DNA of 35,677 nucleotides from an uncultured Nitrospiraceae bacterium. GTDB taxonomy: Bacteria > Hydrogenedentota > Hydrogenedentia > Hydrogenedentales > SLHB01. A program made the translations under genes and the position numbers. The notes under the pieces were generated by a model. The model made no database searches. It saw only the letters and a list, made by a program, of their open reading frames with translations, and was not told the origin of the DNA. The stretch covers positions 1 to 35,677 of the forward strand of contig CAYVOE010000001.1 of NCBI GenBank assembly GCA_964452795.1, in the 5' to 3' direction. Positions 8,370-35,296 of this stretch are shown here, in pieces; the stretch's first letter is position 1, and the number at the start of each line of letters is the position of its first letter.

Positions 8370-8390
8370 AAACCGAAACCCCGAACCTTA

Positions 8391-8438
8391 CTGTATCGAC
8401 CGAGCGTCACGGTAGCACCGGGAAGGGGCCCCTGTCAA
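8391..8438 (-). promoter_or_regulatory. Sigma70-type promoter of paralog D plus GTCGATACAG box
   Basis: Minus strand: TTGACA (8438..8433), 18-nt spacer, TACCGT (8414..8409). After an 8-nt gap comes GTCGATACAG (8400..8391). Confidence 0.6.
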
Positions 8439-8669
8439 GCGCCGGCCGGGGGCACGTCCTCGGCACGGGGCCGGACCATCCACCGTTCCGCAGGCTCGTC
8501 GGTCGCACGCAGGAACCGCGAAGGGCCCCGCACAAACTGTATATGCGCCGAAGACCCCCATCTCATGTCGAGACGAAGGCAGGACGCTGCGCAGGAGCCG
8601 CCGGAGCCCGCGCGAGCGGCCCCGTTTATCCGATCTCGGAGGCCGGCCCGCCTTCGGCTCAGCGATCGA

Positions 8670-8698
8670 TTGACAACTCTGGCGATTCGTCTTACACT
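8670..8698 (+). promoter_or_regulatory. Sigma70-type promoter for the ceramidase-like gene
   Basis: TTGACA (8670..8675), 17-nt spacer, TACACT (8693..8698), about 40 nt upstream of the ATG at 8738. Confidence 0.55.
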
Positions 8699-8737
8699 AT
8701 CGACCCTGTTAGGTCCGTACGGAAATCGGGAGACACT

Positions 8738-10102
8738 ATGAGCACCATGCGCGCCGGCGCGGCGGAACGGATCATCACGCCGCCCCTCGGAACTCCTCTG
8801 GCGGGTTACTTCGAGCCTCATTACGCCCAGGAAGTCGTGGCGGACATCCACGCCCGGGCCCTGGCCGTGGAAGACGAGGCGGGACGACGGGCGGCCATCG
8901 TGGCCTGCGACGTGCTGGCGGTGTCGGCGGAGACGGTGGCGGCGATCCGGGCCCGCGTCGAACGAGACGCGGGGATCCCCGCCGGCAACGTCCTGGTCTG
9001 CGCCACCCACACCCACACGGGCCCGCAGACCGCGGAAATCTTCGGTCAGCCGCCCCACGAGCCCTACATGCGCTTCTTTGAAGAGCAGGTGGCCGGCGCC
9101 GTGACCGATGCCATGGCCCGGCGGGCGCCGGCGCGGCTGACCTTCGGCACCGCGCAGGAAGACCGCATCAACATCAACCGGCGCGTGATCATGCGCGACG
9201 GCACCGTTCATACCCACACCACCGATGCCGACGCGGGCGACGAGGTGGGCCGCGAAGGCCCCTCCGACCCCGAGGTGGCGGTCCTGGCGGCGGAAGACGA
9301 CGACGGCCGGGCCCGAGCGCTTCTGGTGAACTACGCCCTCCACCCCACCAACGTCCGGGGCGACCGCATCTGCCCCGACTATCCGGGCTACCTGGCGGAA
9401 TTCCTGCGGCCGGAGCTGACGGGCGAGGCGGTGACCGTGTTCGCCAACGGCGCCTGCGGCGACCTGGATTCGAAGACGCCCTTCCTCAAAGACGTGGCCT
9501 ACGGGCCCGGTCGGGCGCAGCGCATCGCGGAGGTCCTGGCGGAAGCCGTGGGCCGGGCGCGGGCCGAGCGCCGGCCCGTCGAGGGCGACGGCGTGGGCGC
9601 GGCCCGAGAGCTGGTGCGGCTGCCCCTCAAGGAGGTCAGCCCGGAATGGCTCGAGCATGCCCGGGTCGTCCTGAGCCGCGACGAGCCCGGTGAACTGGTT
9701 TTCACCCGGGGGACGCGCCGGCCCAGCGCGCTCAAGGAGCGGATCTACGCCGCCGAGGCCCTGCGCATGGCGGAGCTTCGGGCCGTTCAGCCGTATTTCG
9801 AGGCCGAAGTGCAGGTGATCCGGATAGGCGACATCGCCGTGGTGGGCGTGCCCGTCGAGCTGTTCACCGAGTTCGGACTCGAGATCAAGCGCATCGCCCG
9901 CGAACGGTTCCGTCACGCCCTCGTGATCGAGCTGGCGAACGGATATTTCGGCTACGTCCCCACGCGCAAGGCCTTCGAGGGCGGCGGCTACGAGACCCGC
10001 CTCGCCCGGTCGAGCCCGGTGAAGCCCGAGTCCGGCGACCTGCTCGTGGAAGCCGCCGCCAGGCTCCTCGCCGAAGGGCTCCCGGCCGCGAAGACGGCCT
10101 GA
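8738..10102 (+). CDS. Neutral/alkaline non-lysosomal ceramidase N-terminal-domain-like hydrolase
   Basis: ATG at 8738 with a GGGAGA RBS. The N-terminus MSTMRAGAAERIITPPLGTPLAGYF...HARALAVEDEAGRRAAIVACDVL fits that family's pattern, recalled from memory. The promoter above supports this internal start over the track start at 8543. Confidence 0.75.
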   Translation: MSTMRAGAAERIITPPLGTPLAGYFEPHYAQEVVADIHARALAVEDEAGRRAAIVACDVLAVSAETVAAIRARVERDAGIPAGNVLVCATHTHTGPQTAEIFGQPPHEPYMRFFEEQVAGAVTDAMARRAPARLTFGTAQEDRININRRVIMRDGTVHTHTTDADAGDEVGREGPSDPEVAVLAAEDDDGRARALLVNYALHPTNVRGDRICPDYPGYLAEFLRPELTGEAVTVFANGACGDLDSKTPFLKDVAYGPGRAQRIAEVLAEAVGRARAERRPVEGDGVGAARELVRLPLKEVSPEWLEHARVVLSRDEPGELVFTRGTRRPSALKERIYAAEALRMAELRAVQPYFEAEVQVIRIGDIAVVGVPVELFTEFGLEIKRIARERFRHALVIELANGYFGYVPTRKAFEGGGYETRLARSSPVKPESGDLLVEAAARLLAEGLPAAKTA

Positions 10103-10287
10103 CGGCCCACGGCATTCCTTAACCCGTTGTCGCGATCCACCGATCGCGTGCCGGGCGGGGTGTGAGGTCCCACGGACCTCATCGCTCCGCCCGGCGATTT
10201 TTCTGGGTTCGGTGCGCCGGAAAGGTGCAACGCGCGAGGGCCGGTGGTATGCTCTCCGCCCGGCGCGGTCGCCGACGGAGAATCTCG

Positions 10288-11403
10288 ATGGAGCAGGCGA
10301 TAAAGAGCGTGGTGGACATCGGCAAAGGAGAGCCCGATTTCGCCACGCCCGAACACATCAAGGAGGCGGCGCGGCGGGCCCTCGCCGAAGACTTCACCCG
10401 GTACACCCCGCAGCCGGGGATCCCGGAGCTGCGCGAGGCGGCGGCGGAGAAGTTCCGGACCGAGAACGGCATCGACGTCTCCCCCGACCGGGTCGTGGTA
10501 TCGTGCGGCGGGAAGCACAGCCTCTACAACGCCTTTCAATGCCTGCTCTCGCCGGGCGATGAGGTGCTGGTCCCCACCCCTCACTGGTTCGCCTACACCG
10601 CCCAGATTGCCGCGTGCGGCGCACGGCCCGTCCTCGTGCCCGCGTCGCCCGAGTCGGGATTCCTGCCGGATATCGAGGATCTCCGCCGGGCCCGGACCTC
10701 CGCGACCCGCGCCATCGTCCTCAACAGTCCCCACAACCCTACGGGAGCGGTCTACGACCGGGCGCGGCTCGAGGCCATTGCCGCTCTGGCGGCCGAACAC
10801 GACCTCTACATCGTTTCCGACGAGGTATACGAGAAAATCGTCTTCGACGACGCGCGTCACCTGTCCGTGGCCGCCATCGACCCGGAAATCGCGCGGCGGA
10901 CCGTCACCGTAAACAGCGTGTCCAAGACCCACGCCATGACGGGCTGGCGCATCGGATACGCCGCCCTGCCCGGGGATCTCGCCCGGCGGGTCATCGCGCT
11001 CCAGGGCAACAGCACCTCGGCGCCGTCGGCCATCTCCCAGCGCGCGGCCCTGGCGGCCCTCACGGGCGACGCCTCCCACGTAGCGACCATGGTCGCCGCC
11101 TACGCGCGACGCCGGGCCTGGCTGCTCGATCGGCTGGAGGCCTTGCCGGGCCTGCGGTGCGTCCCGCCTCGGGGCGCCTTCTATTGCTTCGTGAACATGG
11201 AGGAGCGCATCGGCACGGAGGTGGCCGGCGAACCCATCGGTTCCGCCGACGACTTCGTTCGAGTGCTCCGCGAACGGGCGGGCGTGTCGATGGTGTCGGG
11301 CACGCCCTTCGGCGCCGACCGCCGCGTGCGGATTTCCTTCGCCGTGTCGGAATCGGACCTCGCCGAAGGAGTGGACCGCATGGCGGAAGCGCTGCTCCTG
11401 TGA
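10288..11403 (+). CDS. Class I/II pyridoxal-phosphate-dependent aminotransferase (aspartate aminotransferase-like)
   Basis: Motifs seen: GEPDFATPEHIKEAA, LNSPHNPTG, and SVSKTHAMTGWRIGY with the PLP-lysine. I prefer the ATG at 10288 (GGAG RBS, 7-nt spacing). The in-frame ATG at 10249 (GAGGG RBS) is an alternative. The track start at 10162 adds an Arg-rich non-family extension. Confidence 0.88.
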   Translation: MEQAIKSVVDIGKGEPDFATPEHIKEAARRALAEDFTRYTPQPGIPELREAAAEKFRTENGIDVSPDRVVVSCGGKHSLYNAFQCLLSPGDEVLVPTPHWFAYTAQIAACGARPVLVPASPESGFLPDIEDLRRARTSATRAIVLNSPHNPTGAVYDRARLEAIAALAAEHDLYIVSDEVYEKIVFDDARHLSVAAIDPEIARRTVTVNSVSKTHAMTGWRIGYAALPGDLARRVIALQGNSTSAPSAISQRAALAALTGDASHVATMVAAYARRRAWLLDRLEALPGLRCVPPRGAFYCFVNMEERIGTEVAGEPIGSADDFVRVLRERAGVSMVSGTPFGADRRVRISFAVSESDLAEGVDRMAEALLL

Positions 11404-16238: not shown

Positions 16239-16691
16239 TCAGTCGGGGTAGGGTTCGTCCATACGGGCGGGCTGGCGGGGTTCGGTGCCGGCGGGATGCT
16301 CGGCGGTCGCAGCGGCGGCCGCACCGGAACCGGATGCGGAGGAGGCCGCGACTTCAGCGGGCGTCTCATCCGCGGATTCGGCGTTCGCTTCCACCGATTC
16401 CGTCTTCTCCTCGTCCTTGTCCTTCTTCTTGTCGTCCTTGGGCTCGGTGGCGACGGCCAGGGCCAGCGATTCGACGTAATCCTCGGGATTGTAGCGCGAC
16501 AGCTCCCGGAGCTCCTTCTTTACCGGCGCCAGCTCGCGCGTGATCTCGTGCATCATCTCGTCTTTGTAGCGCCGGAAATCGCGGTAGGTGTGCATGATCA
16601 CCTTGGCGAAAACGGGGAATCGCTCGGGCCCGAGGAAGAGCAGGGCCACCCCCATGATGATGATCAGTTCGCCAATGCCGATGTTGAACAT
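16239..16691 (-). CDS. Twin-arginine translocase TatA/TatB-family subunit (TatB-like by length, 150 aa)
   Basis: The N-terminus MFNIGIGELIIIMGVALLFLGPERFPVFAKVIMHTYRDFRRYKDE shows a TM helix, a GP hinge and an amphipathic helix. The C-terminal tail is long and acidic. Confidence 0.85.
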   Translation of the reverse strand: MFNIGIGELIIIMGVALLFLGPERFPVFAKVIMHTYRDFRRYKDEMMHEITRELAPVKKELRELSRYNPEDYVESLALAVATEPKDDKKKDKDEEKTESVEANAESADETPAEVAASSASGSGAAAAATAEHPAGTEPRQPARMDEPYPD

Positions 16692-16978: not shown

Positions 16979-17323
16979 CTAGTGGCGGCCGATCAAGAAG
17001 GGGCCTCCGCGGGGGAAATCGCCTCCCTGAAACATGATCCAGACCAGCAGGGCCGTGAGCACGACGACCAGCACGGCGCCCGTCGCCCAGAGCCGTTGCC
17101 GCCGCTGCTGCGCTTCCGCCTCCTTGAGTGCGTCCCGCTTGCGCGCGCGCATCTCCTCTTCCAGGCGGCGCTTGAACTCTTCCCGGCGCTGGCGCAGGGC
17201 CTCCCAGGGGCAGGCGATCCCGACCAGCAGGGGCGTCAGCTTGCTCGTTCCGATGAGCGCCAGGATCGCCAGCGCAATGACCAGGATGTCGCGCGTATCG
17301 AATCCGGCGTGCTGCACTTCCAT
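16979..17323 (-). CDS. Membrane protein (114 aa): two hydrophobic segments flanking a charged coiled-coil-like segment
   Basis: ATG at 17323 directly preceded by GGAGGGA. The product is MEVQHAGFDTRDILVIALAILALIGTSKLTPLLVGIA...RQRREEFKRRLEEEMRARKRDALKEAEAQQRRQR...GAVLVVVLTALLVWIMF. It begins 23 nt after the tatC stop codon. Confidence 0.55.
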   Translation of the reverse strand: MEVQHAGFDTRDILVIALAILALIGTSKLTPLLVGIACPWEALRQRREEFKRRLEEEMRARKRDALKEAEAQQRRQRLWATGAVLVVVLTALLVWIMFQGGDFPRGGPFLIGRH

Positions 17324-17345
17324 TCCCTCCGCGGCCCGAAGACGC

Positions 17346-18098
17346 TTAGGGGGCCTCGGCGGCGCTCTTCCGCCTGCGCCAGACAATAAGATACGAAAGC
17401 CAGATGCTCGCCTCGTACAACAAGTAGAGAGGCACGAACATCATGCCCATGGAGAAGAGATCGGGTCCCGGCGTGAGGACCGCGGCCGCGATGGCCATGA
17501 GCACGATGGCGAAACGCCGGTGCTTCTTGAGCGCCGCCGGCGTCAACAGGCCCAGATAGACCAGCACGAAGACGACCATGGGGAACTGGAACGCGATGGC
17601 GAAGCCCAGCATGAACTTGATGATGATCGCCACCGTCTCGTTCATGCGCAGCTCGTCGACCTGCACGGACTGGGGCGCCCAGGCGATGATCATGGGCAGG
17701 AACTGGGGCAGCACCTCGAAATAGGCCAGCACGATCCCCGCCAGGGCCAGGCCGCCTCCGCCGAAGATGAAGAAGTGGACCACGCGCCGCTCCGTGGGCT
17801 TCAACCCCGGAAAAATGAAGGCGCAGACTTCATAGACGATGATGGGGAGGCAGATGAACAGGGCCGCGTACAGGGCGAGTTGCAGCTTGACCCACACCGC
17901 CTCCAGCGGGTTCAACACCTGAATCTGGATGCCCTCGGTGTTGACCACGAGAGGACGGATCAGCAACTCGAAAAGCTGGTTCGAGAACGCATAACACACG
18001 AAGAAGCTGATGATTACCACGATAACGGAGATCATCAGGCGCTGACGGAGTTCCGCCAGGTGCTCCGTGAAGGTCATACGCGCGTCGTCTTTGCGCAA
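17346..18098 (-). CDS. tatC: Twin-arginine translocase subunit TatC
   Basis: The protein contains MTFTEHLAELRQRLMISVIVVIISFFVCYAF...PGLKPTERR... and has a six-TM layout. The start is either the TTG at 18098 or the ATG at 18077. Confidence 0.93.
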   Translation of the reverse strand: MRKDDARMTFTEHLAELRQRLMISVIVVIISFFVCYAFSNQLFELLIRPLVVNTEGIQIQVLNPLEAVWVKLQLALYAALFICLPIIVYEVCAFIFPGLKPTERRVVHFFIFGGGGLALAGIVLAYFEVLPQFLPMIIAWAPQSVQVDELRMNETVAIIIKFMLGFAIAFQFPMVVFVLVYLGLLTPAALKKHRRFAIVLMAIAAAVLTPGPDLFSMGMMFVPLYLLYEASIWLSYLIVWRRRKSAAEAP

Positions 18099-33067: not shown

Positions 33068-33859
33068 ATGAGTCGACCTTATTACGGATACGAGAGCACC
33101 TACGGATTCGATCGCGAGCGCATCACCTATGCCGTGCAGCGCCTGATCCTCGCCTGCGCGGCGGTCTTCGCGGCCCAGTTGCTCCTCGACATCCCCTTCG
33201 GCCGCCCCGGCGTGCCGCTGGGCGGACTGCCGGCGTGGCTGCTGGCCTTTCGTCCCGAGATCTCCGTGGGCCTGCTCTGGCAGCCCATCACCTACGTGTT
33301 CCTCCACGGGGACCTGTCGCACCTGTTCTTCAACATGCTCTGGTTCTACATCTTCGGACCCGAGGTGGAACGGGCGCTGGGCACGCGGCAGTTCTTCCGA
33401 TTCTTCCTCATCAGCGGGGCGCTGGGCGTGCTGGTCAATCTTCTGCCGATCCCGCTCATCGCCAACAACTACGCGCCCGTAATCGGCGCGAGCGGAGCGG
33501 TCATGGCGGTGCTGGTGGCCCACGCGGTCATCAACCCCGAGCGGGAGCTGTTCATCTTTCCCCTGGCGGTTCCCCTCAACGTCCGCGGGCTCATCATCAT
33601 CGTTATCGCGTTTAACCTGATCATGGCGGTGTTCGGAGCGGGGGTTACGTCCGTCGGCACACACCTGGGCGGCATGGCCGCCGGATACGCTTACATGAAG
33701 CTGGTGCCCCGGATGCGGACGTGGCGCTTCCGCCGGCCGGCGCGACGGCCTCGTCCGCGCGGCGCCGCGCCGGGCCGCTCGAGCGATACGCGGGACCCGC
33801 TGGGCGAGGCTGTGGACAACATCTTTCGCTTCGAAGACGAGAAGCGTCGACGGGAATAA
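33068..33859 (+). CDS. Rhomboid-family intramembrane serine protease
   Basis: Motifs seen: FLHGDLSHLFFNMLWFYIFG, GASGAVMAVLVA (GxSG catalytic Ser), and GTHLGGMAAGYAY (catalytic His). Confidence 0.92.
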   Translation: MSRPYYGYESTYGFDRERITYAVQRLILACAAVFAAQLLLDIPFGRPGVPLGGLPAWLLAFRPEISVGLLWQPITYVFLHGDLSHLFFNMLWFYIFGPEVERALGTRQFFRFFLISGALGVLVNLLPIPLIANNYAPVIGASGAVMAVLVAHAVINPERELFIFPLAVPLNVRGLIIIVIAFNLIMAVFGAGVTSVGTHLGGMAAGYAYMKLVPRMRTWRFRRPARRPRPRGAAPGRSSDTRDPLGEAVDNIFRFEDEKRRRE

Positions 33860-34194
33860 TGGGCACTTTCGGAATTCAAGAGATTTTAGTACTGATCATC
33901 GTGATCCTGGTCTTGCAGAAGACCGGGCTGTGGCGGATCATCTCGGACGGCTTGCGCGAACTGCGGGGAGAGCGGCCGACCGGCGCCGGCGGAGCTTCCG
34001 GTCCCGCCGGGGATTACCGCTTCTTTTTCCAGTCCCTGGGCATTTCGCCTTCCGCCCCCTGGGAGGAGATCGAGCGGGCCTACCGCGCCAAGGCGAAGCT
34101 GTACCATCCCGACGGCAAGGCCCTCGATGAGGACCACATGCGGGCCCTCAACGAGGCCTACGACGAGCTCAAGCGCCTGCGGCGCCGCCGGTAG
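33859..34194 (+). CDS. Membrane-anchored J-domain protein with TatA-like N-terminal TM/amphipathic segment (111 aa)
   Basis: The ATG at 33859 overlaps the rhomboid stop codon (TAATG). The N-terminus MGTFGIQEILVLIIVILVLQKTGLWRIISDGLRELRG resembles TatA ([25 protein letters not shown]). The C-terminal half LGISPSAPWEEIERAYRAKAKLYHPDGKALDEDHMRALNEAYDELKR is a J domain with the HPD motif. Confidence 0.75.
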   Translation: MGTFGIQEILVLIIVILVLQKTGLWRIISDGLRELRGERPTGAGGASGPAGDYRFFFQSLGISPSAPWEEIERAYRAKAKLYHPDGKALDEDHMRALNEAYDELKRLRRRR

Positions 34195-34275: not shown

Positions 34276-34692
34276 CTAGCTCTCGCCTTTCACGACGCGG
34301 TCCCACGACTCTTCGTCGGCTTCGATCTGGAGAGCCCGAACAAACCGTTCGTGGGCCTCTTCGGGGGCGCCGTAGATGACGAAAAGCTTGTCGAGGTTGG
34401 TGATCTCGAATACCTTGCGGATGTCCTTGTTGAGGGCGCACAGGCGCAGGCGCCCCCGCGCCTCCTGCACCGCCTCGTTGATGCGCAGCAGCTCCGTGAG
34501 TACCGCGCTCGAAAGGTAATCGACCCGTTCAAAGTTGAGAAGCAGATTGATTCGCGGCTTGCCTTGAATGTGGGCGAGGACTTCGTTGCCGAACTGAGAG
34601 ACGTTGAGCGTGTCCAGCACGCTCGACGATGTAATGGTCCCTTCGGTGATAGGCCCGCGCTCTTCGAAGGCTACCAGCGCTTTCTGCGGCAT
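34276..34692 (-). CDS. STAS-domain anti-sigma-factor antagonist (SpoIIAA/RsbV-like)
   Basis: The protein contains LDTLNVSQFGNEVLAHIQGKPRINLLLNFERVDYLSSAVLTELLRINEAVQEARGRLRLCALNKDIRKVFEITNLDKLF. Its ATG lies 3 nt after the kinase stop codon. Confidence 0.88.
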   Translation of the reverse strand: MPQKALVAFEERGPITEGTITSSSVLDTLNVSQFGNEVLAHIQGKPRINLLLNFERVDYLSSAVLTELLRINEAVQEARGRLRLCALNKDIRKVFEITNLDKLFVIYGAPEEAHERFVRALQIEADEESWDRVVKGES

Positions 34693-34695
34693 GCA

Positions 34696-35166
34696 TCACC
34701 CTCCTTTATTGCTGAGCGTCTTGCGCCGGAATGACATCTCAAAGCAATTCTGCGCCCGATTGTACTCGACATGGTCCATGAAATGTCGAATGAGGCAAAG
34801 TCCGCGGCCCCCTTTCTGGTGGCATTCGGGAACCGTTATGTCTTTGCAGCAGAACCCGCGGCCTTCGTCGCAGATTCGGATCCGACAGGAATCGCCGACT
34901 TCGGCCAGTTCAATGGCCACCCGTCGGGACGCATCGCCCTCGTTGCCGTGCTGGATCGCGTTGACCAGGGCCTCCTCGAGGCACAATCGTGCATAAAACT
35001 CTTCTTCCGGTTCGATCCAGTCACGCTCGATCAGCGACGCCAAGGCCCCTTGCAACGCGTCCGACATCGCATCGTACGTGCTCAAGAACTCCCGTCGATA
35101 AAAGACGTTCGCTGCTCGCACGAAACTGCTCCATGCTCGAAGGCTTCCGCTCGAAGGCTTCCTCAT
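34696..35166 (-). CDS. Anti-sigma regulatory factor, Ser/Thr protein kinase (RsbW/SpoIIAB-like HATPase_c)
   Basis: Motifs seen: LEEALVNAIQHGNEGD (N box), IRICDEGRGF (G1), and GGRGLCLIRHFMDHVEY (G2). I prefer the start at ATG 35166. The track ORF to 35283 adds an Arg/Gly-rich extension. Confidence 0.82.
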   Translation of the reverse strand: MRKPSSGSLRAWSSFVRAANVFYRREFLSTYDAMSDALQGALASLIERDWIEPEEEFYARLCLEEALVNAIQHGNEGDASRRVAIELAEVGDSCRIRICDEGRGFCCKDITVPECHQKGGRGLCLIRHFMDHVEYNRAQNCFEMSFRRKTLSNKGG

Positions 35167-35296
35167 GAGGATAACACACGACAACGGTTGAACGGTAAGA
35201 CCCAACCGGAGGCCCGATTTCGCACCCCTTCGCGGCCTTGTTCCCGACGGCCCTTTACGGGCCTCGGAAGGGCGCCGAGACAACGCCCGGACCGGC

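Follow-up and report, generated by a model that had tools for sequence, protein, structure and literature searches.

Gene content and conservation of the locus

The window, by which we mean the whole 35,677-nt stretch of contig CAYVOE010000001.1 (assembly GCA_964452795.1) analysed here, comes from a host whose phylum is known here from metagenome bins alone, and carries on its forward strand a gene for a rhomboid intramembrane serine protease joined to a gene for a small membrane-anchored J-domain protein, referred to below as the J-protein. The rhomboid/J pair is a real conserved module, seemingly restricted to Hydrogenedentota. Its features are the following.

33068-33859 (+), rhomboid intramembrane serine protease, 263 amino acids (aa), six transmembrane (TM) helices, N and C termini cytoplasmic (PF01694, AlphaFold2 [AF2] model, Foldseek)
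33491-33493 (+), codon of the catalytic Ser142 within GASGA, residues 140-144 (invariant in 38 homologues and 72 locus sequences)
33662-33664 (+), codon of the catalytic His199 within T-H-x-G-G (T198, H199, G201 and G202 invariant)
33803-33832 (+), motif G-E-A-V-D-N-I-F-[KR]-F of the cytoplasmic C-terminal tail of the rhomboid, residues 246-255, behind a basic disordered linker (homologue alignment)
33859-34194 (+), membrane-anchored J-protein, 111 aa (open reading frame [ORF] and 161 full-length homologues of ~105-115 aa)
33859-33969 (+), anchor module of the J-protein, residues 1-37: N-out tail, E8, core of ~11 residues (I9-L19), hinge G23, amphipathic helix 24-35 and R-E-L-R-G end (alignment, AF2, hhalign)
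34003-34191 (+), J domain, helices I-III without helix IV, residues 49-111 (PF00226, AF2, Foldseek)
34105-34113 (+), HPD codons, H83-P84-D85 (invariant in 38 homologues)

One genome per species was scanned for relatives of the J-protein, which 111 genomes encode; 80 loci were retrieved and their surroundings compared over +/-5 kb by tblastn-based synteny. The named homologues of the J-protein, among 161 that are full length, belong to Candidatus Hydrogenedentes/Hydrogenedentota. Upstream DNA of 400 nt or more is available at 77 loci, and at every one of them a rhomboid gene lies directly upstream of the J gene on the same strand, an arrangement that persists across sequences just 40-60% identical while the remaining neighbours vary. 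The functional linkage suggested in a preliminary description of this DNA is supported by this adjacency. No rhomboid-J fusion occurs among the top 120 rhomboid homologues; apparent fusions at loci L068 and L078 were rejected, the genes there being in frame and separated by a TGA codon. A number of bins labelled Nitrospirales/Nitrospiraceae, Bathyarchaeia, Rhodothermaeota or Robiginitomaculum (L002, L014, L015, L025, L027, L039, L058 and others) show the same synteny as Hydrogenedentota bins, namely a tetratricopeptide repeat (TPR) gene, lepB, the rhomboid gene and the J gene, and these labels are probably wrong.

In the window, the TAA stop codon of the rhomboid gene (33857-33859) and the ATG of the J gene (33859) have one base in common, giving TAATG, and both this overlap and the 111-aa ORF were correctly placed in the preliminary description. 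The start codon assumed there, on which the presence of a TM segment depends, is likewise backed by the homologues, which always begin three to eight residues ahead of a conserved Q-E and so favour ATG 33859 over an upstream in-frame GTG at 33721. Translational coupling cannot be carried over to the family as a conserved trait, however: outside the window a stop/start overlap is found at just two of 76 related loci, which makes it local to the window, and the spacer between the two genes has a median length of 27 nt (0-30 nt in 42 loci, 31-100 nt in 29 and more than 100 nt in three, with a maximum of 214 nt).

The rhomboid matches PF01694 with an E-value of 6.3e-28 (98.2 bits, cutoff 22.6), and neither the 38 database homologues nor the 72 locus-derived sequences depart from G140-A-S142-G-A (TM4), T198-H199-x-G-G (TM6) or H85xxxN89 (TM2), so that the Ser and His motifs from which a rhomboid had been recognized hold in all of these sequences. 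Its AF2 model (pLDDT, a per-residue confidence score, of 83.5) has six TM helices and superimposes on crystal structures of GlpG with a Foldseek E-value of 4e-6 and TM-scores of 0.73-0.76; the 34 PDB matches at E<=1e-3 are GlpG throughout, with target-normalised TM-scores of 0.66-0.76. By its model and its intact motifs, the protein is a GlpG-type rhomboid, predicted to be catalytically competent and otherwise an ordinary member of its family. It also has a conserved motif in its cytoplasmic C-terminal tail, where D250, N251, I252, F253 and F255 are near-invariant in the 38 homologues and recur as the same pattern in the locus sequences, and where AF2 places a short helix (244-253) with low confidence. 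Most orthologues keep the tail motif; loci L030 and L051 have D-D-I-L-[ED]-F instead, and the motif is missing from a low-GC clade (L065, L071, L072 and L080). DnaK or the J-protein might dock there.

The J domain, joined to the anchor by a linker, is ordinary, though minimal in that it stops short of helix IV. Residues 56-111 match PF00226 at 2.3e-10 (40.9 bits, cutoff 27.8) and the HPD tripeptide between helices II and III is invariant, in agreement with the intact HPD motif reported earlier. Helix II carries the basic residues K78 and K80 in the homologue alignment. The AF2 model places helices at 49-60, 68-80 and 91-110, and its best Foldseek matches are the J domains of Sis1, Tid1 and DnaJ (probability 0.9-0.99, root-mean-square deviation ~2-2.6 A), with E-values of just 0.03-0.4 because the domain is short. 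Lys plus Arg amounts to 0.07 in the N-terminal flank of the TM segment and 3.3 in the C-terminal flank, a clear positive-inside signal from which an N-out/C-in topology with a cytoplasmic J domain, the orientation that the J-domain assignment had presupposed, is predicted. Together with P0002, P0004 and P0005, the J-protein of the window makes up a small subclade in which Q20 replaces Ser and W-R replaces W-P. The window's protein is alone in having HPDGKALDED, a one-residue insertion relative to the HPDxGGDED of the family.

The anchor of the J-protein and its likeness to TatA

Strong conservation spans the whole anchor (E8, I16, L19, G23, W25 and R33-E-L-R-G37), with E8, G23 and G37 invariant in the family alignment. 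The AF2 model shows a helix at 6-22, a kink and a second helix at 24-35. The TM core comprises only ~11 hydrophobic residues, and the amphipathic helix that follows has a hydrophobic moment of 0.73-0.87, against 0.44 in E. coli TatA. The anchor is thus TatA/B-like in its architecture and at the same time fails the family models. Residues 1-45 of the J-protein have no match to the Pfam TatA_B_E model at E<=10, where residues 1-45 of E. coli TatA, as a control, score 5.5e-14 (51.6 bits), and the score with the NCBIfam model TatA_Rickett is 10.6 bits (cutoff 90). When the anchor profile was searched against PDB sequences, a pilin-like N-terminus (E 0.41) outranked TatA (E 1.3), neither being significant.

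The Tat genes of the window itself are relevant to how these results are read. They lie 15 kb from the rhomboid/J pair and comprise the following.

17346-18098 (-), tatC (Pfam, 2.1e-56)
16239-16691 (-), TatA/B-family protein, 150 aa, MFNIGIGELIIIMGVALLFLGPERFP... (Pfam, 22.1 bits, cutoff 21)

A protein search with the TatA/B-family protein returned five homologues, each of them annotated as TatA or TatB, and BLASTP finds no match between it and the anchor. That a genuine Tat subunit reaches just 22.1 bits indicates that Tat proteins of this lineage are divergent, and the lack of a Pfam match for the anchor accordingly counts for less. The presence of tatC and a TatA/B gene also means that the J-protein is not the canonical Tat subunit of the lineage. 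Two small membrane ORFs sit between tatC and the TatA/B gene on the reverse strand. One of them, a 135-aa ORF at 16979-17386 (-), contains DILVIALAILALIGTSKLTPL, which resembles a TatA TM-hinge region; it scores 8.3 bits with a small TatA hidden Markov model, has no Pfam match and may be a very divergent TatA.

Profile-profile comparison gives an intermediate picture. Overall, hhalign aligns the anchor with Tat profiles at 64-88% probability and z-scores of ~3.6-4.2 over block shuffles, in which columns are shuffled inside the pre-TM, TM and post-TM blocks. The profile of the lineage's own TatA/B protein, which is shallow with its five homologues, gives 69% (P 4.3e-5) over 38 columns, and a profile of nine TatA/B/E sequences gives 88% (P 3.3e-6) over 32 ungapped columns. 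Native scores of 28.6 and 29.2 compare with null values of 15-17 +/- 3 and are reached by 0-3 of 300 shuffles; in an earlier and noisier alignment (61%), 3-4 of 200 shuffles were as good as native. Four N-terminal TM families from the same genomes, used as decoys, score 0.1-15%, and a true Tat-versus-Tat control scores 98.3%. These values are suggestive of an in-register similarity exceeding what composition would produce and specific to Tat among the families tried.

In this register, E8 of the anchor faces Q8 of TatA or E8 of TatB and its W-P faces L-P, whereas F20-G21 of TatA face S/Q-x, the invariant Gly of the anchor comes two residues later and the K-K position is lost. The earlier remark that Q and K take the place of the F-G hinge is accurate for the window, where Q20-K21 stand opposite F20-G21 of E. 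coli TatA. As to the position-by-position alignment with TatA put forward in the preliminary description, an ungapped register does emerge from hhalign, at 22% identity, but the TatA/E family model does not recognize the segment, and homology to TatA is at most weakly supported by these sequence comparisons, with the F-G hinge hallmark out of place. A search of 1.84 billion representative proteins with the anchor profile returned eight matches, each a member of the same family or a frameshifted fragment, and no stand-alone TatA-like relative; the profile finds its own family only and the module accordingly occurs in no other context.

Possible functions of the rhomboid/J pair

The physiological role of most bacterial rhomboids is unclear, and the few known cases point to membrane quality control with an ATP-dependent partner. 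In mammals, RHBDL4 works with p97. YqgP of Bacillus subtilis is a rhomboid that serves as an adaptor of FtsH in the quality control of membrane proteins (PMC7231995), and a further form of rhomboid quality control is the removal of orphan membrane subunits by GlpG and Rhom7 (PMC7232013). With this in mind, we propose, at a probability of roughly 0.4, that the pair is a two-part module of membrane proteostasis in which the J-protein tethers the activity of DnaK to the rhomboid on the cytoplasmic side of the membrane, a proposal built on the linkage of the genes, their conserved motifs, the predicted topology and analogy. The J-protein would then act as a dedicated co-chaperone of class C, fixed in the inner membrane through one N-out/C-in helix; its association with the rhomboid, its recruitment of DnaK and its class of clients are what we infer. 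The anchor, with its E8-bearing TM helix, Gly hinge and R-E-L-R-G helix, would position the J domain at the cytoplasmic face beside the rhomboid, and the HPD-containing J domain would trigger ATP hydrolysis by DnaK, allowing Hsp70 to clamp onto membrane proteins, either bound or already cut by the rhomboid, at their cytoplasmic portions. Hsp70 might in this way provide an ATP-driven holding or extraction activity that is absent from the rhomboid itself, and the module would resemble YqgP-FtsH of Bacillus and RHBDL4-p97 of the endoplasmic reticulum in principle. A strict, phylum-wide link between a rhomboid and an Hsp70 co-chaperone offers a concrete hypothesis for how a rhomboid may be coupled to chaperone power.

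That the anchor is conserved as a whole, beyond what a cleavage site would span, argues for a specific protein contact, and the conservation of the anchor and of the rhomboid tail, as read from the alignments, fits a specific and lasting contact better than a cleavage signal. Genes for a secreted TPR protein and for signal peptidase I often accompany the pair, which would fit a role in envelope protein processing and quality control. Several observations weigh against tethering of DnaK to the rhomboid. A dedicated single-pass N-out protein beside a rhomboid is equally expected of a substrate. Co-variation between the tail motif of the rhomboid and the R-E-L-R-G helix is not strict: one clade without the tail motif keeps the helix and L077 shows the opposite, so that no support in either direction can be drawn from this comparison. 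At one further locus, L081 (976-kb contig, 3746-10348), a 72-aa ORF and a 4.6-kb gene for a 1538-aa, ROCO-like leucine-rich repeat-Roc-COR-metallophosphatase protein separate the rhomboid gene from the J gene. The source organism is found in manure, compost, sludge and digester metagenomes. Compost metatranscriptomes contain short contigs of at least 99% identity to parts of lepB, the rhomboid gene, the J gene and a neighbouring STAS gene, and the representation of both genes of the pair speaks for the proposal; against it, none of these contigs spans the rhomboid-J junction and DNA carry-over in the libraries is possible.

The J-protein might instead be the substrate of the rhomboid, as the preliminary description suggested, cut near the periplasmic end of its very short TM segment. 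The cut would either mature it, in the way AarA matures Providencia TatA, or trim the anchor to a length too small to stay in the bilayer; the J domain would thereby be set free or put out of action, and DnaK recruitment at the membrane tuned. We consider this possible yet somewhat doubtful. A single-pass N-out/C-in protein has the orientation that rhomboids cut; the outer end of its helix carries small or polar, helix-destabilising residues (G, Q/H/N and E8) comparable to G11, S12, P13 and Q15 of TatA (PMC2941825), its hydrophobic core is just ~11 residues long, and the gene linkage is strict. Rhombosortase and its GlyGly-CTERM substrates show that a rhomboid-family protease can have its targets as genetic partners (PMC3237569). 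Cleavage of TatA by AarA follows a rule of a small P1 residue and hydrophobic P4 and P2' residues, with helix-destabilising residues close by (PMC2941825). No conserved P4/P1/P2' site exists in the J-protein family, where a compatible site occurs in just 28 of 71 members, at scattered positions, and the AarA/TatA precedent invoked in the preliminary description therefore does not extend to a recognition motif. The periplasmic tail measures 5-8 residues, so that in many members (those starting MPG...) the conserved small residue lacks a P4, and the conservation running through the anchor and the amphipathic helix exceeds the needs of a cleavage signal. Moreover, AarA-dependent cleavage requires an N-terminal extension peculiar to Providencia TatA (PMC2941825), from which it follows that likeness to TatA alone predicts no cleavage. 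Rather unlikely, in our view, is a third explanation in which the two are independent housekeeping genes of membrane proteostasis, the J-protein being a general DjlA-like DnaK tether and the rhomboid a general GlpG-like protease, co-transcribed and linked by shared regulation only. The pair often lies inside a larger cluster with lepB and the TPR gene, spacers reach 214 nt, many loci have their own Shine-Dalgarno-like sequences, and L081 tolerates an insertion between the genes. Adjacency at 77 of 77 loci, retained at 40-60% identity while other neighbours vary, is on the other hand stronger than is usual for unrelated genes, and the anchor module is confined to the J-protein family.

The resemblance of the anchor to TatA opens a further possibility, which we hold to be highly improbable, that the J-protein is a Tat accessory: a diverged TatA/TatB paralogue would sit on TatC via E8 and bring DnaK to the translocase for substrate proofreading or hand-over; its processing by the rhomboid would follow the Providencia example. 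The hhalign probabilities of 64-88%, the ungapped register with E8 opposite Q8 of TatA and E8 of TatB, the block-shuffle z-scores of 3.6-4.2 and the far lower scores of the decoy TM families speak in its favour, and the divergence of the lineage's own small Tat subunit (22.1 bits) makes the miss by Pfam less than decisive. Against these stand the sub-threshold results with the Pfam and NCBIfam TatA models, the shift of the hinge Gly by two residues with loss of the F-G and K-K positions, the non-significant PDB profile search, and the genomic context, as no tat gene was found within +/-5 kb of the pair in the 80 loci and the tatC of the window has a TatA/B gene of its own. The link to the Tat pathway entertained in the preliminary description is thus not borne out by gene neighbourhood, the tatC and TatA/B genes being unlinked to the pair. 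Most improbable is the fullest form of this idea, a true diverged TatA/TatB paralogue fused to a J domain that binds TatC or the rhomboid gate through Glu8, directs Hsp70 to Tat and has its delivery switched by a rhomboid cut; if true, it would be a chaperone-coupled, protease-gated Tat accessory new to any organism. Were the anchor simply Tat-derived, it would be the first Tat-type helix reused to place another machine.

Several known systems come close to the pair. In E. coli DjlA, a class C J-protein, a TM anchor at the N-terminus precedes a C-terminal J domain. DjlA works with DnaK (PMC8215388), and the J-protein shares with it the order of domains and the presumed job of bringing DnaK to the inner membrane; unlike DjlA, it has less than half the size, has no central domain and possesses a dedicated rhomboid partner. 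The J-protein was rejected as a DjlA orthologue on the basis of the NCBIfam model PRK09430, which it matches with 15.2 bits (cutoff 162) over the J domain only. YqgP (GluP)-FtsH (PMC7231995) and RHBDL4-p97 likewise couple a rhomboid to a cytoplasmic machine powered by ATP in membrane protein quality control, but the ATPase proposed here is Hsp70/DnaK, reached via a separate small J-protein, and the coupling is deduced from gene linkage alone. AarA/TatA of Providencia stuartii likewise consists of a bacterial rhomboid and a small single-pass N-out partner, and the short TM segment, outer polar residue, hinge and amphipathic helix of that partner recur in the J-protein. What AarA takes off is an N-terminal extension, at a site defined by P4/P1/P2' (PMC2941825), whereas the tail of the J-protein has 5-8 residues and the motif is not conserved. 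The partner here also bears a J domain and is not recognized by the TatA family models, and the two genes here are strictly adjacent. Likewise, TatA/TatB/TatE (PF02416) resemble the anchor in their short N-out TM segment, polar position 8 and hinge followed by an amphipathic helix, and match it without gaps over 32-38 columns in profile-profile comparison; unlike them, the anchor scores below threshold, has no F-G hinge in register, is not linked to tatC and is followed by a C-terminal J domain.

A short dedicated J-protein has a precedent in AtcJ of Shewanella oneidensis, a minimal J-protein that owes its specificity to a short segment outside the J domain and to its operon partners (PMC6715715). 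AtcJ differs from the J-protein in being soluble and having a C-terminal extension. The NCBIfam cold-adaptation J-protein model ActJ, taken as the AtcJ family, gives 23 bits on the J-protein (cutoff 150). At ~110 aa, the latter is a very small natural membrane J-protein and could be a usable tool. Literature searches, which did not cover the main survey of prokaryotic J-protein architectures, returned no description of a rhomboid/J-protein pair or of a TatA-like/J-domain protein, in line with the preliminary description, which knew of no such fusion. As far as checked, the pair is thus undescribed, and it is assembled from known parts.

Neighbouring genes and other features of the window

Upstream of the pair lie the remaining members of the frequent TPR-lepB-rhomboid-J cluster and a promoter-like site.

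31373-32326 (+), TPR protein whose N-terminal segment resembles a signal peptide, encoded at the head of the cluster (Pfam TPR families, E down to 6e-17; 50 of 80 loci)
32326-32877 (+), signal peptidase I (LepB, S26), upstream neighbour of the rhomboid gene (Pfam Peptidase_S26, 4.9e-32; 47 of 80 loci)
32975-33004 (+), promoter-like site TTGGGA-18-TATACT in the 190-nt lepB-rhomboid spacer, on weak evidence (consensus scan, one site against a chance expectation of 0.4)

The end of the TPR ORF (32326) coincides with the GTG start of lepB (32326) in a one-base stop/start overlap (32323-32328). Taken with the overlap between the rhomboid and J genes, this divides the cluster into two tight pairs separated by the 190-nt spacer and its promoter-like site.

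Downstream, genes for a STAS anti-sigma-antagonist-like protein and an RsbW-like HATPase_c_2 kinase (34276-35283, -) converge on the J gene, next to which they are found in 14 of the 80 loci. At L081, a prepilin peptidase gene lies 3' of the J gene. Elsewhere in the window, three paralogues at 993-2183, 5499-6632 and 7005-8168 (-) carry a prepilin-type N-terminal methylation motif, one of them also matching DUF1559, and a T2SSE-type secretion ATPase is encoded at 25683-27359.

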